A stretch of 16,036 bases of DNA. It comes from a virus. The notes under the pieces were generated by a model. That model did not search any database, had not been told where the DNA came from, and was given only the letters and a program-made list of their open reading frames with translations. This document shows positions 154 to 16,036 of this stretch, piece after piece. Where the stretch lies: positions 1 through 16,036 of IMG/VR virus record IMGVR_UViG_3300012347_000037. One strand, 5' to 3'. The first letter of the stretch is position 1, and each line of letters begins with the position of its first letter. A program made the translations under genes and the position numbers.

Positions 154-1698
154 TTAAGCGAGGTTGAAGCGACGAACGCCAGCGCCACCCTTAAGAACAC
201 CGATTGCGAGGTATCCGTAAAGAGCGATTTCAAGCTCACCAGATGTGAGTACATTGAGACGGAGCTGTGTAGTTGGTGACTCCCAGACATAGACAGACTC
301 AGGAGCTACGAGGAATGCAGACTCATCTACAATTCCTGATACTGCGATGTTGTGGTCGACGATGAGGTCTGTACCGAGTACGTTACCCATTGCTGACTGT
401 GCAACTACTGCACCTGCAGCGTTGTACTGTGCGCCCTGCGCTGAGTAGAGTGGGCGACCTGTTGTATCTGCGTAGCCTGTGATAGCTGCCCATTGGTCAG
501 TCGAAGCGACGAGCTTGTTAGCGCGGTCTCCGCCTGTGTTCTTGTAAGCTGCTGCAGCTTCTACAGAGATGTATGACTGAAGACCTGCCGCTGTTGCTGC
601 TACACCTGTAGCTGCTGTACCAGAAGCTGTGAACGCTGCGATAAGAGCTGCGTCTGTTGACTTCTCGTAAGCCTTGCGGAGTTCTGTCATGAGGAGATCC
701 ATGAACGCTGGTGATGAGCGGTCAATGAGTTCCCATGAGATACGGTTGATTCCAGCAAACTTATTTACTGTGACTGTATCGTATGTAGATGTCATGCCTG
801 TCTCAGATGGTGCTGCACCCTCGTCTGTGTCTGCAACTGTTGGAGCAGTACCGAGCTTAGGAATTGTGAAAGACATTCCTGAATCTGGGAGAGCGTTACG
901 AGTTACTGCCTCGAACGCTGGGCGTCCTGTGAAAGTAGTTGTAACGAACTGGTTAAGGTGCTGAGGTAGTGTAAGACCTGTGTTAGTTGATGTTGAGTCA
1001 TCCGCTGCACGAACTGTGCGACGTGCCTCGTCATCGCCCATAGCTGCCTTGATAGATGCCTCAAGGTACTGAGCAGATGAGATTGGAGCTGTGCGCTCTT
1101 TGACGTAGTGTGATGCCGCAACTGTTGGGCGAGCCGCTTCGACTGCTGCTGCTTCAACTGCTGGAGCTTCTACCGGTGTAGTGGTTTCTTCCACGACTGG
1201 CTCGCTTTCTGGTTGGGTTGGTTCTGCAGGGATAACTTCCTCTGCAGCAATCTCTAGTACCTGTGCAGACTTGAACGCCGGCTCTGTTACGAGAGAAACT
1301 TCTTTTAACTTAGCCGCTGTTACTACGGTGTGACCGTCACGGCTTGGCTTTGATGCGATGATCTCCGCACCAACTGAGAGACCGCTAACGAGTCCCTCCT
1401 GCGCCTGAATGAGTGCATCGTTACCGCCTGTGGAGCGGGACAACTTAAAGGTTGCATAGATGCCGTCCTGTCGAACCTCTGCCGCTGTCATGCGACCGAC
1501 TGGCTTCTTCATGTCATGCTGGGAGAGGAGTTTAATCTTAGAGATGTCAGTAACGTCGATTGAACCCGCCTCGAAGACAACGCCACCGAGGTTGGTGTTA
1601 CCGATTTCGCCTGTACCCATAGGGACAATCTTGCCTGAGATTTCGCGGCGCTCTTCGCTACATTCTAGAGATGCGGCTTCGATGTATAGGGTTTCCAT
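154..1698 (-). CDS. Fused prohead (HK97-type) protease and major capsid protein
   Basis: 514 aa. The N-terminal ~150 aa carry prohead-protease-like blocks (KLLSQHDMKKPVGR, GLSVGAEI, LKEVSLVTEPAF). An acidic Pro/Glu/Ala linker follows (PAEPTQPESEPVVEETTTPVEAPAVEAAAVEAA). The C-terminal ~300 aa are HK97-fold capsid-like (FAGINRISWELIDRSSPAF...). The ATG overlaps the portal stop (TAATG). Confidence 0.88.
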   Translation of the reverse strand: METLYIEAASLECSEERREISGKIVPMGTGEIGNTNLGGVVFEAGSIDVTDISKIKLLSQHDMKKPVGRMTAAEVRQDGIYATFKLSRSTGGNDALIQAQEGLVSGLSVGAEIIASKPSRDGHTVVTAAKLKEVSLVTEPAFKSAQVLEIAAEEVIPAEPTQPESEPVVEETTTPVEAPAVEAAAVEAARPTVAASHYVKERTAPISSAQYLEASIKAAMGDDEARRTVRAADDSTSTNTGLTLPQHLNQFVTTTFTGRPAFEAVTRNALPDSGMSFTIPKLGTAPTVADTDEGAAPSETGMTSTYDTVTVNKFAGINRISWELIDRSSPAFMDLLMTELRKAYEKSTDAALIAAFTASGTAATGVAATAAGLQSYISVEAAAAYKNTGGDRANKLVASTDQWAAITGYADTTGRPLYSAQGAQYNAAGAVVAQSAMGNVLGTDLIVDHNIAVSGIVDESAFLVAPESVYVWESPTTQLRLNVLTSGELEIALYGYLAIGVLKGGAGVRRFNLA

Positions 1699-2798
1699 TA
1701 GCTCATTCCTTCGCTTCCATTAGGTGTAAGGTCTGTCATTTCCATAGCCTGTTCAACTGAGATAAGTTGAAGAGATAACATCTTCTCAATTACCTGTAGC
1801 TCTACTAGAGGATCGTTCTTGAGGAAAGTATCAAAGACTGCAAAGCGAACCTCATGTCCAGCGGTAGAGATGTCATCCATAGATAGACGGCTCTGAATCG
1901 CTTGGATGTAAGGCTCGATAGAGAGCGCGTAGAATTGCTTACGCTCATCTTGTACGTTTGCATAAGTCATCGTAGTATTCTGGTCAGCGCTTAGGTAATA
2001 CGCTGGGACGTTGCACACGCGGGCAATCTGTGTAGATAGATTCTGTACTGCCTCGTTATACATCATGTCTTTAGGAGAGAACGAGACAGGGTTATAATCG
2101 AGAGTGCTAGTTAAGTAAGCTGTAGAGTTGTTCTGGCGGGCGCGCTTCCATGCTGCGATAAGTCCCTGCACCTCGGATGCTGGAAGGTCTGCGCCGGAGT
2201 TCTTTAGGAATCCTGCGGGCTGTGGGTTCGCAGAGTTGACTGCAGCTGCACGATCTACGTCGATAGCCGCCTGAATAGTGCGACCGCCACGGTCTAATAC
2301 GCCCTCATCGAAACCTTGAATAGTTACGATATCGTTCATGTCAATAGGTGAAGCGTCGATGTAATACTGAGTTACATGGATGCCGTAGAGGTCTGTAGTA
2401 AAGGTAATGCGAGTGTTAGCAATCCACTCAAACGCGCTAGGACGTCCATCTTCTGCATAGCGCTCTGTCACTAGGAGATATGAAACGCCGTACATCATGA
2501 GCGAATCTACGATCCAAGTAATAGTAACGAAAGAAGGCTGAGACTTAGAGAGTTGGTTAATCCAACGAGGCGAGGCGATAACTTCGCCGGTGCGCTTGTT
2601 GTAATACTCTAAAGGGATAGAGGCTACAGTTCCGCAAATAAGATTGCGAGCGCGAGCTACGCTAGGTACTGTCATCGCATCATGGCGAGAAACTCGTGGA
2701 ATGATTGCGTTATAAAGAGAGGGTAAATTCTCGCCCATAACTTGTGGCGCGTACTGCGCTTCGAGGACAGTCGGCTTGTTGCGCGAGAAGATACCCAT
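1698..2798 (-). CDS. Portal protein (HK97-family-like)
   Basis: 366-aa ORF placed between the large terminase and the protease/capsid gene. Size and sequence character fit small HK97-type portals. Confidence 0.8.
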   Translation of the reverse strand: MGIFSRNKPTVLEAQYAPQVMGENLPSLYNAIIPRVSRHDAMTVPSVARARNLICGTVASIPLEYYNKRTGEVIASPRWINQLSKSQPSFVTITWIVDSLMMYGVSYLLVTERYAEDGRPSAFEWIANTRITFTTDLYGIHVTQYYIDASPIDMNDIVTIQGFDEGVLDRGGRTIQAAIDVDRAAAVNSANPQPAGFLKNSGADLPASEVQGLIAAWKRARQNNSTAYLTSTLDYNPVSFSPKDMMYNEAVQNLSTQIARVCNVPAYYLSADQNTTMTYANVQDERKQFYALSIEPYIQAIQSRLSMDDISTAGHEVRFAVFDTFLKNDPLVELQVIEKMLSLQLISVEQAMEMTDLTPNGSEGMS

Positions 2799-2814: not shown

Positions 2815-4236
2815 CTACTCCGAGTAAATCATAGCAGATTGCTGAGGCTTGGAGAGTGTCGAGACAACCATCGCTGTGGCAATAGCGCCAGAGATATCGC
2901 CCGCACTCTTTCGCTTAATGATTCTCCAAGCGGAGTCGTTAGTCTTAGCCGCGCAGTTATTCATCTGTTGAATCCATCCCTCTTGCCCTGAGTGAACCAT
3001 TCTCTTATTGTCGAGGGCATCCTTTAGATCCGTACAGGCTTGATAGAACTGCGCTCCAGAGATGTCGGTGCATACCTGCCCCGCATTGCTGAGACGGTCG
3101 GCGATTGACTGAGTGGCGTAGCGGTCGAAGCCGATAGAACGAGGGCGGTACTGGTCTGCCCAGCCCTTAATATCTGCAGCTATCTTTAACTCGTCTACCG
3201 AGACTTGGCTCTCCCATGTTTGAGCAAGACCAATTCCAACTCGACCATCTGGGAGAATCTGCCCAATAACCAGAGACGCATTGCGACGAGATGGACTGAC
3301 ATCGAAGGCGAATACCGTATAAGCGCCGATTGCCATTTCCAGAGAAGAGTCAGAACACTCTTCGAGACTGCCATGAGTCCACGGAGAAGATAGAGAGTCA
3401 ATCCATTGACATAGGAGTTCCGTGCGGGTGTTCTCAATAGGGCTAGTTGCAACAGCTTCTTCAAGGGCTTCCTCCGTGATCGTATAGCCGAGGGCTGGGT
3501 TAGCTTGCGCCCATCCTGACCGGTCGGTTACTTTGCAATATTGTGGTGCGCTGTACTCGTAGAACCCGAAGGACTTAGGAGGGTTCTCTAGCGCTCGCTC
3601 TCGCATGCCATTAAGGACAAGAGAGAACGCATCTCCTGCGTTAGAAGTGAGTAGTGTCTGAGAGTTCGGTCTAGCTCTAGTCGTAGGGATTGCAGCTCGG
3701 TATCCCTCTTCGTTGACTTCTCGAAGTTCGTCGATGTAGAGGAAGTCTGCAGTACGTCCACGAGATCCATCTCTAGTTGCTGCAACGACATCAAGTCTTG
3801 TCCCATCAAGCATCTCAATGCTCTCAGTTCCGTTCGCGTGTCGTATCTGTTTAACGAAGCCCTTGAGGTGGTCATTACTCTCCAGTACTGAGGCTACTTG
3901 GCGAAAGGTGTCTAACGCCATGGATCTATTAGATGACATTATGAGGATGTTCTTACTGTCCCACTTTAGCAGGTGAGCGAGTATGAGCATACGGGCGAGG
4001 TGTGTCTTACCGTTCTGGCGGGCAATAAGGAGGAGGTTGGTCTTCCTTACCCAGTCACCCTTGGCATCTACCGTGAGCATATCCTTTAGGACGTGTTCCT
4101 GCCATGGGAGTAGAGGCATCTGGATAATCTCACAGAGTTGTTTCACATCTTCGAGCTTGTTCTTACCCTTGAGAGGTATCGAAGAGAGTCTAGGCTTGGT
4201 GACCCCCAAGCGCTTAGTTTTACGCGGTGCAGCCAT
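2815..4236 (-). CDS. Terminase large subunit
   Basis: Walker A-like 'ARQNGKTH', Walker B/catalytic 'ADFLYIDELREV', and a C-terminal nuclease-like half. I prefer the ATG at 4236 (MAAPRKTKRLG...), 4 nt after the HNH stop. The ORF-track start at 4323 is a TTG lying 83 nt inside the HNH gene. Confidence 0.88.
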   Translation of the reverse strand: MAAPRKTKRLGVTKPRLSSIPLKGKNKLEDVKQLCEIIQMPLLPWQEHVLKDMLTVDAKGDWVRKTNLLLIARQNGKTHLARMLILAHLLKWDSKNILIMSSNRSMALDTFRQVASVLESNDHLKGFVKQIRHANGTESIEMLDGTRLDVVAATRDGSRGRTADFLYIDELREVNEEGYRAAIPTTRARPNSQTLLTSNAGDAFSLVLNGMRERALENPPKSFGFYEYSAPQYCKVTDRSGWAQANPALGYTITEEALEEAVATSPIENTRTELLCQWIDSLSSPWTHGSLEECSDSSLEMAIGAYTVFAFDVSPSRRNASLVIGQILPDGRVGIGLAQTWESQVSVDELKIAADIKGWADQYRPRSIGFDRYATQSIADRLSNAGQVCTDISGAQFYQACTDLKDALDNKRMVHSGQEGWIQQMNNCAAKTNDSAWRIIKRKSAGDISGAIATAMVVSTLSKPQQSAMIYSE

Positions 4237-4240
4237 GGGT

Positions 4241-4594
4241 CTATCCGGTGACTGGTCGGGCTGTAAAGGGACTGTTCTGGGGTATCTCCGACCGTGTCGG
4301 GGAGGGAAAGGCAGAAAAATCAAGAGGGGTAGCCATCTGCTCTAAAAAAACACCCTGTGACTTCTTATTCTTCTTGCTATTGCATGGCTTACACGCACTT
4401 ACCATGTTGTTGATATCTATCGCTAACTCTGGTGCTTTGCTTACAGGTATCACATGATCTATGGTCATATCTTTACCCTCATAACCACAGTAGAAGCACA
4501 CCCAACCATCTATTGCTAGCTTCTTGAGTCTTATCTCCTTGTACTTACGGCTAAGGCGTGGGTCACCCTTCTTTGATGCCATGACTACTGCCAT
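4241..4594 (-). CDS. HNH endonuclease (packaging-associated type)
   Basis: Motifs CFYCG...TIDHVIPVS...NNMVSACKPCNSKK, giving an HNH core with two CxxC pairs. It lies immediately upstream of TerL, as in HK97-like cos phages. An alternative start at ATG 4582 has better SD spacing. The C-terminal ~35 aa are Pro/Ser-rich. Confidence 0.88.
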   Translation of the reverse strand: MAVVMASKKGDPRLSRKYKEIRLKKLAIDGWVCFYCGYEGKDMTIDHVIPVSKAPELAIDINNMVSACKPCNSKKNKKSQGVFLEQMATPLDFSAFPSPTRSEIPQNSPFTARPVTG

Positions 4595-5088
4595 CCTTTG
4601 GTGCGTAAGTGATTAAGAGCTGCACAATACATAGGCTCATCATACTCGGTAATACCATACCTATAGGCTACATACTGCCAGTACTTCCAGAACTGTAGCT
4701 CTACATGTGCATTACGCATAGAGGCTATCTTAAGCTGATACAGTCCATAGGCTTGCTTACTACCTCCTATGTTACCTATAGCCTTATCGTTCCATCTTGA
4801 TTCTCTATAGATGATCTCATTATGACACTTATATTCATTATCTGATAATTGCTTATTAGCTACATATTTAACTAAGTCTTTAGATGTACTGAATAGCATT
4901 CTTTGAGAAGCCTCAGTAGGTGTCCCACCTACAGACATAGCTGTGGCAATAACGATTGCGACCCCGCAAGCTAGCGCTTTAAGGCGCTTGCGGTGAGCCC
5001 CTGATGGGCTCTCGCTGGAGAGCTTTAGTGTACCAGTATGGTCAAGGACATTTGTAAAAGTGCTGGTCAGACGGCGTGGCGTTTTCAT
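4585..5088 (-). CDS. Signal-anchored lysozyme-like or lytic-transglycosylase-like protein
   Basis: 167 aa. It has a basic N-terminus followed by a hydrophobic span (LKALACGVAIVIATAMSVGG). The block 'CHNEIIYRESRWNDKAIGN...AYGLYQLK' resembles the (R)ES...N...G(L/Y)xQ(L/I) catalytic signature of SLT/Apf-type muramidases. A strong SD (AAGGAG, N5) precedes the ATG. Confidence 0.5.
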   Translation of the reverse strand: MKTPRRLTSTFTNVLDHTGTLKLSSESPSGAHRKRLKALACGVAIVIATAMSVGGTPTEASQRMLFSTSKDLVKYVANKQLSDNEYKCHNEIIYRESRWNDKAIGNIGGSKQAYGLYQLKIASMRNAHVELQFWKYWQYVAYRYGITEYDEPMYCAALNHLRTKGWQ

Positions 5089-5109
5089 GGAATCTCCTTA
5101 TTAACACCC

Positions 5110-5123
5110 TGTGGATAACTATC
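5110..5123 (-). promoter_or_regulatory. DnaA box 1: perfect TTATCCACA on the minus strand, inside a 14-bp repeat unit
   Basis: The plus strand reads TGTGGATAACTATC. Bases 5110-5118 are the reverse complement of TTATCCACA. The site is intergenic. Confidence 0.6.
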
Positions 5124-5130
5124 CATCAAA

Positions 5131-5144
5131 TGTGGATAACTATC
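5131..5144 (-). promoter_or_regulatory. DnaA box 2: perfect TTATCCACA on the minus strand, second exact copy of the 14-bp unit
   Basis: The identical 14-mer TGTGGATAACTATC lies 21 bp from copy 1, about two helical turns. Its last 5 bp overlap the stop codon of the FmdB-like gene. Confidence 0.6.
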
Positions 5145-5331
5145 TATTGTCGGTAGAGTAGAACCCTGTCCCCTTAAATACGGCTGCAGGTACAGAGCTA
5201 TAGACCTTGTGCATAGGCTCTCCGCAGAAGGGACAGTCCACATCATGAGGCTCATGGATGGCGAGCTTATGATCTAGTATCGCCGTGGACTCGCAGTCCT
5301 CATTACGGCATTGAAACTCATAGGTTGGCAT
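5140..5331 (-). CDS. FmdB-family (CxxC_CxxC_SSSS-type) zinc-ribbon protein
   Basis: 63 aa, MPTYEFQCRNEDCES...CPFCGEPMHKVYSS...FKGTGFYSTDNR. The opener, the two Cys pairs and the 'GxGFY.TD' tail are characteristic of this family. Confidence 0.8.
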   Translation of the reverse strand: MPTYEFQCRNEDCESTAILDHKLAIHEPHDVDCPFCGEPMHKVYSSVPAAVFKGTGFYSTDNR

Positions 5332-5755
5332 TATCGAGCTTCTCGCATATGTGACAAGGTGAACCCTCCATAATCGTATTACCGCAAGTGCAGTAGATAG
5401 GCTCTAAGTTTACCGTGTCTTTCTGGAAATCTGTGTAACCTGCCTTAATAAGTAATGAGACAAGGTCGCTGAACTTTAAGAAGCTTAGATACTCCGCCGC
5501 ATCCTCGCCCTGTCCATTCATACGGCACACAACCACATTAAGCTCGTGGTTCTTCTCTGTGCGCTTACGACCTTGCCTCATCCACTCCATGGGATTGAAG
5601 TCGCTTCTCGCTTTGACTTCTATATCTATCGGGATATTCACGATATCTTTCCCATTACCGCGCCCTACCGTAGCCCCAGACCAATAGCGGCTGAGATACT
5701 CGGCTACTACTCGTTCCGTCCTGAATCCACGGTGTTTGCGGTGTTGAGATGGCAT
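5318..5755 (-). CDS. PD-(D/E)xK nuclease, Holliday-junction-resolvase-like, with a C-terminal zinc ribbon
   Basis: 145 aa. 'GFRTERVVAEYL...GKDIVNIPIDIEVKAR' fits an E...D...E-x-K archaeal-Hjc-like or phage resolvase pattern. The C-terminus carries CTC-x9-CHIC. Confidence 0.5.
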   Translation of the reverse strand: MPSQHRKHRGFRTERVVAEYLSRYWSGATVGRGNGKDIVNIPIDIEVKARSDFNPMEWMRQGRKRTEKNHELNVVVCRMNGQGEDAAEYLSFLKFSDLVSLLIKAGYTDFQKDTVNLEPIYCTCGNTIMEGSPCHICEKLDNANL

Positions 5756-5763
5756 AGTCTGAT

Positions 5764-6018
5764 CTACGCCTTCCCAGTACTAGTTATAGCATGACACTTA
5801 GGACATGACCAGCTAAAGCCATGTTTATAAGTGCCGCCAGTAATCATAATCTGTTCCATCGGGAATGGCTCGTTGCATAGGTGGCAGACGGTAGTAATCT
5901 CTGGATGTACCGCAGGGACTAGAGTGCCGTCCTTAGCATCTTGGAGAATCTCAAGCTCCTCATCGCTGGGAAACTTCTCCCATTCGCCATCTTGATTCTT
6001 GAACTCTATGTGTCCCAT
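5764..6018 (-). CDS. Small zinc-ribbon protein of unknown function
   Basis: The ORF-track ORF is 5764..6072. I prefer the ATG at 6018 (MGHIEFKNQDGEWEKF...), 4 nt after the upstream stop, giving 84 aa. It contains CHLC-x23-CPKC. No function is recognisable. Confidence 0.55.
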   Translation of the reverse strand: MGHIEFKNQDGEWEKFPSDEELEILQDAKDGTLVPAVHPEITTVCHLCNEPFPMEQIMITGGTYKHGFSWSCPKCHAITSTGKA

Positions 6019-6022
6019 GTCA

Positions 6023-6706
6023 TTACCACTTATTCTCTTGTCGACCCCATGAGCCGTTTGGTTTGATTTCATACCAGATTACATCCTTACAGGCGAAGCA
6101 AGAGAAGTTACCCCATGGCTTCTTAGTCTTAGCAGATACTCCGGTCTTCCATGTCATGTCCTTACGGTCATGGCACTTAGAGCACTTAGGGATATCCCGC
6201 TCTGTCTGCCCTCCGATAATGTCCTTAACGATTGAGACTGCCTCGTCTACTGTAGCCGGTGGCTTTGTAGCTGTGAGAGTCCATGGATCTGCCTCGTTAA
6301 CTACTGGCACATAAGTTGAGCCGGTCTGACTCATCTTTGCCTTAGCCTCTTCGATAGCGTTCTGAGCTGCAGACTTAGCGGCTACCTTGCTCATCTCTTC
6401 TCGCGTAGGGCGTTTCCCTTTCGTAGCATAGCCAGCGTTAGCCAGCGCTCTACCAATACTAGACGTCTCGCAATTCTCCAGAGCGGACGTAGCATTAACG
6501 CCTCGCCCTTGGACAGTCTCCTCTGCAAGCCCAGTTGCCCAAGGTGCAGAATCATCACTCTTGCGATATACAGAACTTCCAACGATAAATCGAGAAGGCG
6601 ATGCCTCCAGTAGTTTCGTCTCAATACGCCCATCTGGGTTATCCTTCCAGAACTTAGTTAGTCGCTCTTCAACTGTCTCGTAATCATCTAGGTTAAAGTG
6701 CGCCAC
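6023..6706 (-). CDS. Putative Rad52/Sak-like single-strand annealing protein with a C-terminal zinc ribbon
   Basis: 227 aa, GTG start with AAGGAG-N9. 'TVEERLTKFW..NPDGRI' and 'SALENCETSSIGRALANAGY' resemble the Rad52/Sak blocks (..RL..FG..GW.. and ..A.KEAETDA.KRAL..FG). The C-terminus carries CSKC-x24-CFAC. The functional call is tentative. Confidence 0.45.
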   Translation of the reverse strand: MAHFNLDDYETVEERLTKFWKDNPDGRIETKLLEASPSRFIVGSSVYRKSDDSAPWATGLAEETVQGRGVNATSALENCETSSIGRALANAGYATKGKRPTREEMSKVAAKSAAQNAIEEAKAKMSQTGSTYVPVVNEADPWTLTATKPPATVDEAVSIVKDIIGGQTERDIPKCSKCHDRKDMTWKTGVSAKTKKPWGNFSCFACKDVIWYEIKPNGSWGRQENKW

Positions 6707-6848: not shown

Positions 6849-6999
6849 TGTTAATCGTTTCCTTTCCCTTTTCGCAGGCTATCCAACCTGATTCATATAA
6901 AGCCCCAGCCTCTTGAGCTGTTATACACTCACATAAATATACGACGCTATTTAAAACTTTTATTGCTTCTCCACGCTTGTGACATTTACGCTTAAACAT
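6832..6999 (-). CDS. Hypothetical 55-aa Cys-rich protein (below the ORF-track cut-off)
   Basis: ATG at 6999 is preceded by GAGGAG-N10. It translates MFKRKCHKRGEAIKVLNSVVYLCECITAQEAGALYESGWIACEKGKETINNVQMG. Its 5' part lies in an AT-rich patch, so coding status is uncertain. Confidence 0.35.
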   Translation of the reverse strand: MFKRKCHKRGEAIKVLNSVVYLCECITAQEAGALYESGWIACEKGKETINNVQMG

Positions 7000-7267
7000 A
7001 TAAATCATTCTCCTCTGTGTGTAGTTGTCCCATTATTCCTGCATAGCCGCACAAGTCGATGTATGTGTCGACTTTAGAACCTTCCATTGTCCTTGCCAGC
7101 TTGACCAATAGCATGATACCTGCGACCTGATAGTCACTAACTGGCAGCTCCAGATATGCGCTGATGAGCCGTGCGGTTCTAGACATATTGTCCGTTGGGT
7201 GTCCATACTCCATTCCACGGTCCTGAATGATTGCTTTTGCTTCAATAAGGAAGTCACCGGCGTTCAT
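6992..7267 (-). CDS. Conserved small helical phage protein (DUF6378-like or MazG-like pattern), function unknown
   Basis: 91 aa. The pattern 'RGMEYGHP..N..R.A.L.SAYL....S.YQVAGIMLLVKLAR......K.DTYIDLCGYAG' recalls a family common in phage early regions. The ATG overlaps the upstream stop (ATGA). Confidence 0.55.
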   Translation of the reverse strand: MNAGDFLIEAKAIIQDRGMEYGHPTDNMSRTARLISAYLELPVSDYQVAGIMLLVKLARTMEGSKVDTYIDLCGYAGIMGQLHTEENDLYV

Positions 7268-7380
7268 CGCTTCGCCTTGAATGATTCGATGCGTCCTTCT
7301 ACCTTGCCATCTGATACGCCGATCATGTAGCCCAATAGTGTGCAGCTAATGATGACGATGGCATATGTTGCGAATGTCAT
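7264..7380 (-). CDS. Hypothetical 38-aa membrane protein (below the ORF-track cut-off)
   Basis: ATG at 7380 follows GGAAAGGGCAAAA. It translates MTFATYAIVIISCTLLGYMIGVSDGKVEGRIESFKAKR, one hydrophobic helix and a charged tail. Its stop overlaps the next ATG (ATGA). Confidence 0.45.
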   Translation of the reverse strand: MTFATYAIVIISCTLLGYMIGVSDGKVEGRIESFKAKR

Positions 7381-7454
7381 TTTTGCCCTTTCCGTAGTCC
7401 GTATTTCGTCTACGGGATGAACTTTACCTTAGGGCTGGTCGGTGCCTAGTATAT

Positions 7455-7487
7455 TTTGGTAACGGTTTGGTAACGATTTGGGAAGGG
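7455..7487. repeat. Three tandem 11-bp iteron-like repeats in the largest noncoding gap
   Basis: The plus strand reads tttggtaacgg / tttggtaacga / tttgggaaggg (10/11 and 9/11 identity to the first unit). The period is exactly 11 bp. On the minus strand a TATACT -10-like hexamer (7448-7453) follows immediately. A TCCTCG x2 tandem (7488-7499) flanks the array. Confidence 0.6.
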
Positions 7488-7508
7488 TCCTCGTCCTCGA
7501 AGTAAGGG

Positions 7509-8261
7509 TTAGCGATTGCGGGGTCTGCCATAGACCTTACCCTGTACCGTGAACGTGCCATCCTTCTCGATGTAGATGAGATCTACTTGGACGTTCTTGC
7601 CCTTTACATACATGATGGCGAACGCCTGTTGCCAGTTCATAACGCCTTTAGTGTAGCTAGCCTTAGAAGTGTCCATAAGATGACCCACCTCCACGCCATG
7701 CAGGATACGCCCTACGCGCCCTCCTGTAGCCTCTGTAAAGGACGAGCGACCTGCTCTGTGAGTGTGACCTGAGATAACGTTCTTACCGCGCCTACGCGCC
7801 CCCTCAAGGGCTGAGAGACCCCCCTGTGGCTTGATAGGGGTATGGTCTCCATGGACTGCCACCCAGTTAGGGGCTATGTTCATGTCTGACTTGTGCCACT
7901 TAATGCCTAGCTCGTCAAACTTCATGAACTTCTCGAAGCGCAACTCAGGCAAGGATAGGAAACTAGGGACTTTCTTCATGATCGTGTGATACAAGCGATC
8001 CGTATGATTAGAACGAATGCAGTCAGAAACGCCCAAATCGTAGAGAAGGTCGACGCACCTGTCTCTATCATCGGCTAGGGTCTGCTCGTAGGCTTGAGGT
8101 GTTCCCTCGCTCCACTTAGATATGGTCTGAAAGTCTATTTCGTCACCAATAGTGACTGTCTGGTCTGGCTTAAAGGTCTTTAAGAATCGAGCTATATTCT
8201 GGACTACGTGTACATCCTCATAGGGTACTTGTAAGTCTGAGATAATTACTATGCGCTTCAT
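7509..8261 (-). CDS. Calcineurin-like metallophosphoesterase
   Basis: 250 aa with ordered motifs SDLQ (motif I, Gln where His is usual), GDEID, SNHTD, HGDH and GHTHR. Confidence 0.85.
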   Translation of the reverse strand: MKRIVIISDLQVPYEDVHVVQNIARFLKTFKPDQTVTIGDEIDFQTISKWSEGTPQAYEQTLADDRDRCVDLLYDLGVSDCIRSNHTDRLYHTIMKKVPSFLSLPELRFEKFMKFDELGIKWHKSDMNIAPNWVAVHGDHTPIKPQGGLSALEGARRRGKNVISGHTHRAGRSSFTEATGGRVGRILHGVEVGHLMDTSKASYTKGVMNWQQAFAIMYVKGKNVQVDLIYIEKDGTFTVQGKVYGRPRNR

Positions 8262-8483: not shown

Positions 8484-8669
8484 TTATTTTCCCTTAAGTA
8501 GTAACTCCAACATAGCTTCGACACGCACTAGGCGGTCATTCATTGACGAGCCGCTGTTAGGCTTGAGTTCCGCTAGGTAGTGCAATATTACGAATCTCAG
8601 GAGTGCAGCAGTTCCAGTCAGTACCGTCGCGCATATGGCTACAATCGCAGCCCAATCTTGAGGACTCAC
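8484..8669 (-). CDS. Small membrane protein, candidate holin or lysis accessory protein
   Basis: 61 aa. The GTG start overlaps the upstream stop (GTGA). It has one hydrophobic span (WAAIVAICATVLTGTAALLRFVI) and a charged helical tail. It lies two genes downstream of the endolysin candidate. Confidence 0.55.
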   Translation of the reverse strand: MSPQDWAAIVAICATVLTGTAALLRFVILHYLAELKPNSGSSMNDRLVRVEAMLELLLKGK

Positions 8670-8812
8670 TTTTTGTCGATGGCATCGACTGCCGCCTCAA
8701 TAGCGTCTACTGCTACATCGGCGATAGCCTTCTTAGCGCGGTATGACTTGATAGCTGCACGGATAGCAGGAAGAGCAATGATGCCTAGACCTGCGATGAT
8801 AGCTGCTTCCAT
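8666..8812 (-). CDS. 48-aa membrane protein, candidate holin (below the ORF-track cut-off)
   Basis: The ATG at 8812 comes directly after the endolysin TAA, with a strong SD (GGAGG-N7). It translates MEAAIIAGLGIIALPAIRAAIKSYRAKKAIADVAVDAIEAAVDAIDKK, an N-terminal TM helix plus a charged amphipathic tail. Confidence 0.55.
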   Translation of the reverse strand: MEAAIIAGLGIIALPAIRAAIKSYRAKKAIADVAVDAIEAAVDAIDKK

Positions 8813-9256
8813 TTACTTGCCTCCTAGTAGCGGGATATTAAAGAACGTAGAATCTGTGTCACCCTTTTTAGTGAAAGAAATATGGCAATGATGGTTATGA
8901 GGGTTGATTCCCTTATACTTGCGCCAGCGCCAGCCCATGCGAGACGATGCGATGCGACCGTTGAATATGACGTAGGCGATATTGCCCTTACCTGATTTGG
9001 CATAGAGTCGAATCTGATCAGCAATATCGGGCATGAGGTCGGGCTTGCCGCCCTTATGGACATCTCTATCGACATCGAGGGCGCGAACATAGGCGATCCC
9101 ATCGACTGCATTCTTCCAATCAGGATTATGGTCGCTAGGACGCGCTGAATGGCGAGTATCGCCAATCCATCCATCGGAACGGCGATCTCTATCTGGGAAC
9201 GTGTCATCAAATTGCTCCCTTAGCTGTTGTCCTGCTTTACAAAGAATTGGCTTCAT
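8813..9256 (-). CDS. Putative endolysin (zinc metallopeptidase-like, LAS/M15-type His/Asp motifs)
   Basis: 147 aa. The 'SDGWIGDTRHSARPSDHNPD', 'VRALDVD' and 'NPHNHHCHISF' blocks give H-x5-D and HxH metal-ligand-like motifs. It sits after the tail genes and before two small TM proteins. The call comes from motifs and position only. Confidence 0.5.
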   Translation of the reverse strand: MKPILCKAGQQLREQFDDTFPDRDRRSDGWIGDTRHSARPSDHNPDWKNAVDGIAYVRALDVDRDVHKGGKPDLMPDIADQIRLYAKSGKGNIAYVIFNGRIASSRMGWRWRKYKGINPHNHHCHISFTKKGDTDSTFFNIPLLGGK

Positions 9257-14139: not shown

Positions 14140-14535
14140 TCTCTCGCTCCTTCGCTAGGTCGTTTAACACTTCTATGTGAGCCTTAAACGCCATAGGCGA
14201 TAGGTTCACTATTGACTCAAACGGAACCCCGTACTCATACGATAGACGAGCTGCCGTATAAGTAACGGAGTTCCGATCTAGCCTAAAGGGGAAGACTCTA
14301 AGACCTCGACCCCTTGCAACATCTCGACGAACTTATCCCCAAAAGGAGGAACTGTTTCTCCGCCGCGCTTCATGGCTTCCCAGCAAAGGAAAAATACATC
14401 CGATTGCTTCTGGTCTTCCATAAGGCTCTTGTGAAAGCCCTTACCAGTATGCTGCTCGAAAGCGTACTCGTGGATAGGGAGTATCTCGTACTCTCTAACC
14501 TCGCCATTAGTCTTTGTGATTTTTAGTTTTGCCAT
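14111..14535 (-). CDS. Tail assembly chaperone, -1 frameshift product (GT-like, ~141 aa)
   Basis: Hand translation shows the -1 frame is open from the slip site for 57 codons (RLDRNSVTYTAARLSYEYGVPFESIVNLSPMAFKAHIEVLNDLAKERENANRNTRKR) to the TGA at 14113..14111. This exactly fills the otherwise unexplained 138-bp gap at 14140-14277. Confidence 0.65.
14278..14535 (-). CDS. Tail assembly chaperone (G-like, zero-frame product)
   Basis: 85 aa, directly downstream of the major tail gene. It ends 6 nt after a canonical slippery heptamer. Confidence 0.7.
   Translation of the reverse strand: MAKLKITKTNGEVREYEILPIHEYAFEQHTGKGFHKSLMEDQKQSDVFFLCWEAMKRGGETVPPFGDKFVEMLQGVEVLESSPLG
14284..14290 (-). other. 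Programmed -1 ribosomal frameshift slippery heptamer C CCT TTA
   Basis: The minus strand reads ...TC C CCT TTA GGC TAG. The X XXY YYZ phasing is correct in the chaperone zero frame, two codons before its stop. Confidence 0.65.
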
Positions 14536-15491: not shown

Positions 15492-16036
15492 CCAACCATA
15501 CTGTTCGGGTCGATATACGGCGAAATAAGTCCGCGAATGCGGCTTAGAAGCTGAGAGGACATCGCATAGAATAAACCCATAGATCCATCGGGAGCCATGC
15601 CGTTGCCTGAGTTAGCTTGACGAGCTTGCCAGATAGACTCGGCAACCATAAGGGCTGCCTCCTGAATTGCTGGGACTGTAGAAGGGTCGAGATAAGTCTC
15701 TGCAGCTACTACGCCGTAAGGGTTGACAGGATGGTAAACGGTTGCGGTGTTGTTGTTACCTGAGATGGCGTAAGTGATTGAATACTCGCCTACCTCTGTG
15801 ATGGTCTTGCTGCCGTTATGTTTAGATCCCATTCCTGAGATGACCACAGTCTGGCCTACATAGAATACGTCCTTAGTAGGCTCATCAAAATAGGTAGTGC
15901 CTGTGTTGGTGGTATTGCTATGACCAACTCCGAAAGAATTGTTAGCCCATATGAAAGGGAGCAGGGCGTTATCTGCCGCGGCGCAAACTTCTTGAATGAT
16001 TGCATCGCTATAGAGGGAGCCGACACCGAGAGCTGC
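15488..16036 (-). CDS. Head-tail adaptor-like protein (gp6/gp15-type), 3' part of the junction-spanning gene
   Basis: The ORF track starts this ORF at an internal GTG (15847), but the frame stays open to the window edge (...AAADNALLPFIWANNSFGVGHSNTTNTGTTYFDEPTKDVFYVGQTVVISGMG...). The N-terminal 'TELKAALGV' opener and the C-terminal helices 'AALMVAESIWQAR...LLSRIRGLISPY' resemble phage adaptors. It sits directly downstream of the capsid gene. Confidence 0.65.
   Translation of the reverse strand, partial: AALGVGSLYSDAIIQEVCAAADNALLPFIWANNSFGVGHSNTTNTGTTYFDEPTKDVFYVGQTVVISGMGSKHNGSKTITEVGEYSITYAISGNNNTATVYHPVNPYGVVAAETYLDPSTVPAIQEAALMVAESIWQARQANSGNGMAPDGSMGLFYAMSSQLLSRIRGLISPYIDPNSMVG
15982..16036. 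repeat. Terminal direct repeat, copy 2 (identical to 1..55)
   Basis: Same 55-mer as the window start. The length fits an assembler k-mer overlap. Confidence 0.9.

Follow-up and report, generated by a model that had tools for sequence, protein, structure and literature searches.

Consensus DnaA boxes beside a conserved structured element at the early/late junction of small tailed phages

The locus and its DnaA boxes

The virus record IMGVR_UViG_3300012347_000037, analyzed here over its full 16,036 nucleotides (hereafter the window), is a circular assembly in which bases 1-55 recur at 15982-16036; the genome comprises 15,981 bp and all of its genes are encoded on the minus strand. The contig derives from run ERR3489835. 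The present analysis concerns the 51-bp gap (5089-5139) between the stop codon of a gene for an FmdB-family Zn-ribbon protein and the ATG (5088) of a lytic transglycosylase gene, and the putative binding sites for the host initiator DnaA (DnaA boxes) that can be recognized in it. As described below, boxes of this type recur at the homologous junction of many related phages, always just upstream of a conserved nucleotide-level element that we denote R2 (4946-5046, minus strand), and may represent an optional regulatory input from the host. A first-pass annotation, made from the sequence of the window, had proposed three functions for these sites: a host-DnaA-dependent origin of replication, a DnaA-sensed or DnaA-titrating switch at the early/late boundary, or an operator for a phage protein recognizing the dyad GATA-ac-TATC.

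Exact matching confirms the two copies of the 14-mer TGTGGATAACTATC that this annotation had placed at 5110-5123 and 5131-5144 (plus strand). On the coding (minus) strand, GATAGTTATCCACA is read twice with a 21-bp period, the sequence down to the start codon having the form GATAGTTATCCACA-TTTGATG-GATAGTTATCCACA-GGG-TGTTAATAA-GGAGATTCC-ATG. The distal copy extends into the Zn-ribbon gene and includes its stop codon, the GATAG of the 14-mer being read as ..AGA TAG, so that the pair looks like a 21-bp tandem duplication. A third, inverted and degenerate box, missed in the first pass, forms a head-to-head pair with the proximal box across the 3-nt separator CCC. Two boxes of the window match TT(A/T)TNCACA, the published DnaA-box consensus cited in bioRxiv 10.1101/866236, exactly, and the third has one mismatch. 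The two direct boxes indeed point the same way about two helical turns apart, as had been described, but this spacing is not conserved in relatives; likewise, the size of the gap was given correctly, but the genes that follow it are those of the transglycosylase and an HNH endonuclease rather than the first structural gene of a late block.

The motif TTATNCACA has no match in the genome other than these two boxes. In dinucleotide shuffles the mean number of matches was 0.41, and two or more matches anywhere were obtained in 12 of 200; the earlier expectation of 0.12 for a single given 9-mer is arithmetically correct. When up to two mismatches to the 14-mer are allowed, the window contains three matches, a number that none of 200 shuffles attained. 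One 2-mismatch relative, GATAGATATCAACA at 4408-4421 (minus strand), lies inside the HNH gene, where it encodes AIDINN, a segment conserved as protein in relatives; this site is probably dictated by the coding sequence and coincidental.

Conservation of the boxes across the phage family

Relatives were collected initially through the transglycosylase, the boxes not being a selection criterion. In this set, boxes were found at the same junction in the nearest relatives as well as in some that have diverged to approximately 50% amino acid identity, with differing arrangements. Two pattern scans of IMG/VR, in which one box 35-75 nt upstream of the motif TTGAC-N6-GGTAC (its GGTAC being hereafter the anchor) was required, showed two or three boxes at the homologous junction in at least 239 related IMG/VR contigs.

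The 62 distinct box-bearing junctions comprise two main types. Type I has the order box, 2-3 nt, inverted box, approximately 40 nt, box, TGCTTGACA, whereas type II, to which the window belongs, consists of two boxes 11-13 or 20-21 bp apart (start to start), 2-3 nt, an inverted degenerate box, a Shine-Dalgarno sequence and the ATG. The head-to-head geometry, in which two inverted boxes are separated by 2-3 nt, is present in most of the 62 junctions, and its partners are usually unequal, with TTATGCACA or TTATCAACA opposite TTATCCACA. Altogether at least 17 arrangements of one to three boxes were distinguished; isolated proximal boxes and tandem direct boxes are common, direct pairs being spaced by 11-21 bp, and both number and orientation vary. 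The proximal box is retained in the relatives L001, L002 and L005 and in many type II junctions, and the homologue of the distal box abuts the stop codon of the upstream gene in many relatives. Either orientation, variable spacing and clustering are the behavior of sites for a DnaA monomer; given that the arrangements vary and that paired boxes differ, binding by a monomeric protein appears more plausible than a dimeric operator.

Within this turnover of arrangements the box itself is retained. The type I proximal site, profiled by position rather than by motif match in 41 unique junctions, shows T40 T40 A36 T37 [C21/A18/T1/G1] C36 A40 C37 A38; in other words, eight of the nine positions are 88-98% conserved and position 5 is free, which corresponds to TTATNCACA and to the DnaA-box profile with positions 1-4 and 6-9 constrained. 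Box variants among the relatives include TTATCCACA, TTATACACA, TTATGCACA and TTATTCACA, all four bases being encountered at position 5; TTATCAACA and TTATTAACA recur as weaker partner boxes, and TTGTCCACA is found in divergent relatives. The assignment of the 14-mer starts as DnaA boxes is accordingly supported by the family. In contrast, the 14-mer pair is not conserved as such: beyond TTATNCACA, only the (A)G flank upstream of the box is kept.

The boxes are also confined in position. Family sequence totaling 2.85 Mb contains 682 exact boxes, of which 550 fall within 130 nt upstream of the anchor, and the density outside this slot (0.047 per kb) is about that expected by chance; in the first sample, which was not selected for boxes, the corresponding values were 1.6 per kb in the slot and 0.05 per kb elsewhere. 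Taken together, this sequence evidence makes it very probable that these are DnaA-type boxes under selection. They are nonetheless facultative: when sampling was independent of boxes, 55 of the 68 junctions lacked a box, six had two or more and seven had a palindrome of a different type (see below). Among the 17 close relatives of the window defined by the large terminase (TerL), 11 possess boxes. No phage gene specific to box carriers was detected among the genes of the window.

The R2 element and the slot upstream of it

The nucleotides of R2 are read in different frames, or lie outside any open reading frame (ORF), among relatives, so that its conservation cannot be attributed to a protein. 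The element comprises an anchor segment, in which TGGTACnCT, a form of the extended -10 motif (TGnTAnnnT), shows no variation (67 of 67 aligned relatives) while TTGACA is present in approximately 70%, and a predicted three-way junction (Table 1) with compensatory changes in 11 of 20 pairs. In this structure 97.4% of alignment cells are paired, compared to 25-40% in slid controls, and its covariation score was reached by none of 500 shuffles; the fold of the window's own R2 has a z score of -2.6. Given that G:U pairs (approximately 30) far outnumber C:A pairs (two) and that the apical loops are often GNRA, the folded form of R2 appears to be the sense-strand RNA. Searches with a covariance model gave a single R2 copy per genome and none in Arthrobacter phage Decurro, and an Rfam search of the window at E<=1 gave no family. 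In more divergent relatives, the boxes and TTGAC-N6-GGTAC are kept next to a differently shaped stable hairpin. On these comparative grounds, R2 may be a new RNA motif involved, for example, in antitermination, processing or priming. Upstream of these two parts, a further conserved stretch, Module A, which can be counted as a third part of R2, lies within the 5' end of the transglycosylase ORF in the window but is intergenic or located within the upstream gene in other relatives.

A scan for sigma-70 promoters and terminators gave no site at the boxes, and over the whole genome it predicted fewer sites than in shuffled sequences. Three promoter assignments tried by hand, namely TTGATG-N17-TGTTAA at the boxes, TTGACA as a -35 element and TGGTACnCT as an extended -10, were all rejected: no consistent spacing was found, no start was compatible with the outer stem of the RNA, and the geometry with respect to the CRP-type sites was off-phase. 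The idea that R2 or the boxes represent a cos or terminase site was rejected as well, given that contig ends map cos 0.8 kb away.

In sister lineages the slot upstream of R2 is occupied differently. The palindrome TGTGA-N6-TCACA occurs 11 times in 593 kb compared to 0.6 expected, and nine of these 11 lie exactly 70 nt upstream of the GGTAC anchor (L026, L046, L048, L052, L074, L076, L079, L081 and L083). These are perfect CRP/GlxR-type sites that are present instead of DnaA boxes; their spacers vary and their half-sites are conserved. Because sister lineages hold either a CRP-type palindrome or nothing at this position, the slot can be considered an exchangeable cassette for host input.

Genome organization, physical ends and relatives

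The features recognized in the window are listed in Table 1; in addition, tail proteins were identified with PHROGs and Pfam. The physical ends of the genome could be mapped from independent IMG/VR contigs: at least 18 share a start base 79 nt upstream of the TerL ATG, and at least 12 terminate 16-19 nt past a T7 run inside the HNH gene, which places cos at approximately 4315-4329. The linear map accordingly reads cos, TerL, portal, capsid, tail, lysis, metallophosphoesterase, the R1 gap, early genes, Zn-ribbon, boxes, R2, transglycosylase, HNH, cos. On this map, approximately 0.8 kb separates the boxes from the right end; they mark the border between the early block and the final two genes before cos and do not directly precede the structural genes. 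Given that the HNH ORF crosses cos, the 3' tail annotated for it is present only when the DNA is circular or concatemeric. There is no evident gene for a small terminase in the window.

Table 1. Features of the window (minus, coding strand; plus, opposite strand)
Feature	Position	Strand	Basis or remark
Major capsid-protease fusion	154-1698	-	PHROGs, Pfam
Portal	1698-2798	-	PHROGs, Pfam
Large terminase (TerL)	2815-4236	-	PHROGs, Pfam
HNH endonuclease, last gene of right arm, ORF crosses cos	4241-4594	-	Pfam HNH E=2e-12
cos, physical genome ends: right ~4329 (...GGCTAC), left ~4314 (CTGCC...)	4315-4329	.	Recurrent IMG/VR contig ends
SLT-like lytic transglycosylase, 167 aa, N-terminal signal-anchor, 5' end overlaps R2	4585-5088	-	phrog_35836 transglycosylase E=7e-10
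Three-way junction: outer stem GCGA/UCGC around two hairpins	4958-5015	-	RNAalifold
TTGACC-N4-TGGTACACT	5027-5045	-	Alignment of relatives
Module A, AAAACGCCACGCC-GTCTGACCAGCAC	5060-5085	-	Nucleotide conservation in most relatives
Third, inverted, degenerate box TTATTAACA; abuts Shine-Dalgarno	5098-5106	+	One mismatch to TTATNCACA, position 6
Proximal consensus DnaA box TTATCCACA; 14-mer 5110-5123	5110-5118	-	Exact match
Distal consensus DnaA box TTATCCACA; 14-mer 5131-5144 overlaps Zn-ribbon TAG stop	5131-5139	-	Exact match
FmdB-family Zn-ribbon gene, 63 aa, ends early block	5140-5331	-	Zn_ribbon_8 E=3.6e-7; TIGR02605 E=1e-8
Resolvase-like nuclease	5318-5755	-	PHROGs, Pfam
227-aa early protein, recorded as PF27148 Slr1353_N	6023-6706	-	Largest unassigned early protein
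DUF6378	6992-7267	-	PHROGs, Pfam
R1, only other sizeable non-coding region	7380-7508	-	Tandem TCGTTACC-N3-CCGTTACC (7476-7458), TATACT (7453-7448), hairpin, Shine-Dalgarno
Metallophosphoesterase	7509-8261	-	PHROGs, Pfam

The Pfam SLT match of the transglycosylase (E=0.0012) is below the Pfam cut-off, while the TIGR02605 score of the FmdB-type protein exceeds the family cut-off. At the N-terminus of the transglycosylase, a segment rich in arginine precedes a weakly hydrophobic helix rich in Gly, Ala and Ser, an arrangement that resembles a signal-anchor-release (SAR) endolysin; the placement of this gene before HNH and cos at the right end is reminiscent of where lambda carries its lysis genes. 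Elsewhere, the window contains a second lysis cassette, with a 147-aa protein (8813-9256) and small transmembrane proteins (8484-8812); the former has an H..D..H motif and was read as a candidate peptidase-type endolysin, without a family match. An apparent 138-bp gap at 14140-14277 (minus strand) follows the 85-aa ORF behind the major tail protein and precedes ORFs of 200 and 505 aa; the -1 frameshift extension of a tail assembly chaperone would be expected at this place rather than non-coding DNA.

The R1 region is probably an early promoter with a direct-repeat regulator site, judging from its sequence. The pattern GAATCGTTACC-N4-CGTTATC, with an 11-bp period, is kept in essentially all relatives examined, and a TAnnnT is located 17 nt past TCGTTA. 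The architecture of the site resembles those of OmpR/PhoB-type response regulators. In L010 an extra TGTGGATAA, a further DnaA box, abuts the R1 repeat. A small unannotated transmembrane ORF (7265-7379, 38 aa) lies behind R1. In L001, a close relative with 90-100% identical proteins, a tRNA-Leu(UAA) gene (L001 1544-1615) is inserted in R1; a tRNA search of the window found none.

A megablast search of the whole genome against cultured phages gave no match. The closest cultured phages are small actinophages, with approximately 30% identity in TerL; the capsid-protease fusion is 41% identical over its N-terminus to that of the 15.5-kb Arthrobacter cluster AN phages, and the metallophosphoesterase is 36-40% identical to those of myco- and Thermobifida phages. 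Arthrobacter phage Decurro has the same layout, its right end closing with HNH. Among GTDB genomes the R2 pattern has a single match, L086 (JBBAVI010000135.1), a 13.7-kb contig in a metagenome-assembled genome of Saprospiraceae; this binning conflicts with the actinophage-like proteins and probably is a mis-binning. Gene-by-gene identities among relatives indicate strong mosaicism, with breakpoints near R2 (in L009, the Zn-ribbon protein is 97% and the transglycosylase 63% identical). The 24.7-kb contig L032 (IMGVR_UViG_3300020042_003684) contains two R2 copies in opposite orientations, one with and one without boxes, and probably is a chimeric assembly of two related phages.

Absence of recognizable replication and regulatory genes

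The first-pass statement that the phage has no recognizable replication genes held under all searches that we performed. No initiator, helicase, primase or polymerase was detected in the window with Pfam, PHROGs or NCBIfam, permissive thresholds included, and no helix-turn-helix regulator was found among the phage proteins with the same databases. The largest unassigned early protein, with 227 aa, also gave no replication protein in a sequence search of PDB and in a fold search. The family of this protein is very large, with no fewer than 8000 close relatives and 4362 cluster representatives at 50% identity. The protein's model (pLDDT, the predicted local distance difference test, 79) consists of an alpha-beta-beta-beta-alpha N-terminal domain resembling double-stranded RNA (dsRNA)-binding domains, a long helix and a C-terminal Zn ribbon; the matches of the N-terminal domain to dsRNA-binding domains in Foldseek are weak (best E=0.01), as are the RPB9/TFIIS-like sequence matches of the Zn ribbon. 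Speculatively, and on the strength of this model, it could associate with the R2 RNA or act as a factor that binds RNA polymerase. The possibility that it is an O-like initiator of the Decurro type was rejected, the protein being unrelated to the initiator of Decurro.

Possible functions of the boxes

Given that the boxes are optional, confined to the slot before R2 and interchangeable with a CRP-type site, a regulatory input appears preferable to a self-sufficient origin. Both control regions of the phage, R1 and R2, bear motifs of a kind typical for host regulators. Among the three functions proposed initially, the DnaA-sensed switch fits best, considering the CRP-type palindrome at the same position in other lineages, whereas the self-sufficient origin is poorly supported and the dyad operator is rejected. 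We tentatively favor the possibility that the boxes are host-DnaA sites providing an optional regulatory input at the early/late boundary and modulating the use of R2 and of the late unit, with DnaA binding and the effect on transcription both deduced from sequence patterns. Under this scenario, a phage without a helix-turn-helix regulator would borrow regulators of the host, and DnaA bound to the boxes would hinder RNA polymerase arriving from the early genes or otherwise modulate the use of R2. The latter would head the last transcription unit, which would include the SAR-like transglycosylase and HNH and run across cos, continuing, in a circular or concatemeric genome, into the terminase and structural genes; the layout resembles the PR'-lysis-cos-terminase order of lambda. 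Expression of the late unit would thereby depend on how much free DnaA is present or how active it is, and free DnaA would drop as genome copies with two or three high-affinity boxes each accumulate, or with the replication state of the host. A copy-number timer operating by DnaA titration would be an attractive version of such a switch.

Several observations weigh against the regulatory reading. The distance of the boxes to the anchor ranges from -12 to -105 and their orientation is variable, which is unusual for classical promoter control, and neither the scan nor manual inspection placed a convincing sigma-70 promoter at the boxes or in R2. Furthermore, a phage without replication proteins must have a host-dependent origin somewhere, and initiator sites are found nowhere else in this genome. 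In addition, the sample of 240 loci fetched by pattern favors box carriers. Finally, the phage proteins resemble those of actinophages and high-GC actinobacteria prefer TTGTCCACA, whereas position 3 is mostly A in these boxes.

The principal alternative, somewhat unlikely in our estimation, is that R2 forms the core of a helicase-loading site or DnaA-assisted origin, for example a transcript- or R-loop-primed start of the ColE1 type or a primosome assembly signal, the boxes recruiting DnaA as an optional route for loading of the host helicase. Because searches revealed no initiator, helicase, primase or polymerase encoded by the phage, the host machinery must be recruited, and the boxes, sole initiator sites of the genome, always stand beside the unique, conserved and non-coding R2; Decurro, which has an O-like initiator gene of its own, carries no boxes. 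The facultative presence of the boxes mirrors the dispensable DnaA box of ColE1-type origins. More generally, ColE1/pBR322, P1 oriR and iteron plasmids have a few high-affinity boxes, dispensable or redundant, beside another cis-element and use the helicase and primase of the host. If R2 were the core of such an origin, the adjacency of the boxes to this single-copy element would be in line with this class, but the GNRA loops and the bias toward G:U pairs point to R2 acting as RNA; moreover, compared with plasmid-type origins, there are no iterons, no Rep gene and no AT-rich DNA unwinding element (DUE), and the orientation of the boxes is not fixed.

Resemblance to a chromosomal origin is similarly incomplete. 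In the window, the two boxes of the same orientation are followed by a GC cluster (GGG) and, in a short A+T-richer stretch, by three NAN trios within 16 bp, which formally satisfies the search rule for the basal unwinding system (BUS) of oriC (PMC8287927). This rule is weak, however, being satisfied by chance roughly once in four boxes, and the trio-bearing stretch is the Shine-Dalgarno/ATG region of the transglycosylase gene. BUS activity depends on orientation (PMC6669920), whereas in most junctions the orientation is reversed or mixed and, relative to R2, not conserved; the trio layout is not conserved in relatives either, the type I proximal box not being followed by trios. An AT-rich DUE is absent beside the boxes, and most relatives with the same early gene set have no boxes at all, which, along with the variable arrangement, argues against the self-sufficient DnaA-dependent origin suggested in the first pass. 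The inflection of cumulative GC skew that such an origin would predict is not located at the boxes; the extremes are at cos and approximately 9.7 kb on the linear map, although skew is weak evidence in a genome with all genes on one strand. Finally, an origin would not readily account for the CRP-type palindromes that occupy this slot in other lineages.

A bolder scenario combining these elements, which we regard as unlikely, is that in this abundant family of aquatic, actinophage-like phages, which has neither transcription-factor nor replication genes, two compact control regions wired to host regulators would run the whole program: the three-way-junction RNA of R2 would be accompanied by exchangeable cassettes (DnaA boxes, a CRP-type site or none), and either the titration of DnaA by the phage's own copies would serve as a replication-coupled late timer, or R2 and the boxes together would constitute a ColE1-like, RNA-primed and DnaA-assisted origin. 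To our knowledge, an origin of the latter kind has not been described for a tailed phage.

It is improbable that the 9-mers are bound by a protein other than DnaA, such as a phage Zn-ribbon protein or another host factor, their likeness to DnaA boxes being coincidence or mimicry. The near-palindromes formed by a box, 2-3 nt and an inverted box in many junctions would be compatible with a dimeric regulator, several small Zn-ribbon proteins are encoded beside the site, genes for Zn-ribbon proteins of the phage being located at 5140-5331, 5764-6072 and 6023-6706, and the upstream AG flank is conserved along with the box. However, the two half-sites of a pair usually differ, many boxes are isolated or form direct tandems, and the conservation profile is that of DnaA, the free position 5 included. 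All candidate phage proteins are present also in relatives without boxes. The GATA-ac-TATC dyad, from which a phage operator had been suggested, is not retained in relatives, and the presence of boxes is not accompanied by any particular phage gene; hence neither a conserved symmetric dyad nor a cognate gene, as expected of a dimeric-regulator operator, was found.

Capture of DnaA without a local target, through a sponge that depletes free DnaA and so shuts off host initiation or a tether of the entering or replicating genome end to membrane-associated DnaA, likewise carries a low probability. Located approximately 0.8 kb from the right end, which by analogy with lambda should enter the cell first, the boxes would be suitably placed for a tether, and two or three strong boxes per copy would add hundreds of sites late in infection. 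T5-like phages conserve pairs of DnaA boxes, with the same variants TTATCAACA and TTATTAACA, in the injection stop signal (iss) region near the genome end and away from origins, and these have been proposed to tether the genome to membrane-associated DnaA (bioRxiv 10.1101/866236). Yet a sponge could sit anywhere, whereas the boxes are confined to one 130-nt slot beside R2; an arrest of entry at 0.8 kb would not yet expose any gene with a promoter; and the T5 proposal is itself hypothetical. Chance or a neutral tandem duplication without function, conceivable inasmuch as the 14-mer pair of the window could have arisen from a single 21-bp duplication spanning the stop codon, is effectively refuted by the retention of the consensus across hundreds of diverged genomes in which the arrangement turns over.

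Comparison with known systems and implications

DnaA boxes in phage genomes are already known from the iss of T5, oriR of P1 and pR of lambda. The T5 iss is similar in that consensus and near-consensus boxes (TTATCCACA, TTATGCACA, TTATCAACA and TTATTAACA) form closely spaced pairs in a non-coding region near the genome end of a lytic tailed phage, with a role that is also only proposed. In the T5 sequence, which we checked, the boxes form direct pairs, 12 bp start to start, and TTATTAACA and TTATCAACA are common variants. T5, however, is a 121-kb phage with its own replication genes, in which approximately eight boxes are arranged in direct pairs with a 3-bp spacer inside large inverted repeats of a terminal repeat, whereas the family described here consists of 16-kb phages without replication genes, in which two or three boxes, often head-to-head, adjoin a structured RNA element; large inverted repeats and a terminal repeat are lacking, and the host phylum is probably different.

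A second group of analogies comprises sites for global or cell-cycle regulators of the host within the control regions of lytic phages, which couple the phage to the state of the host (PMC9437464, PMC3985674). One such case is that of the Spo0A boxes in phi29. Others are CtrA sites in alphaproteobacterial phages and the stimulation of lambda pR by DnaA. In the present case the regulator would be DnaA, its site lies before a structured RNA rather than a mapped promoter, and CRP-type cassettes take the place of the boxes in the same slot of sister lineages. Our search of the literature on DnaA boxes in actinophages and on DnaA titration by phages yielded nothing relevant.

What is new is the setting, namely abundant phages of approximately 16 kb without replication or regulator genes, in which arrangements turn over while the consensus is kept, together with the fixed association of the boxes with a previously undescribed structured RNA and the exchange of cassettes with a CRP-type site. 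By-products of the analysis are this candidate for a new structured RNA and the mapped genome termini of the family. The finding touches upon the question of how the smallest tailed phages, with neither replication nor regulatory genes, set the timing of their development and enlist the replisome of the host. The family is very abundant in metagenomes. A conserved cluster of host-initiator sites at one defined position provides a directly testable handle on this question, and the exchange of DnaA and CRP-type cassettes beside a single RNA element suggests a modular plug-in of these phages to different host signals.

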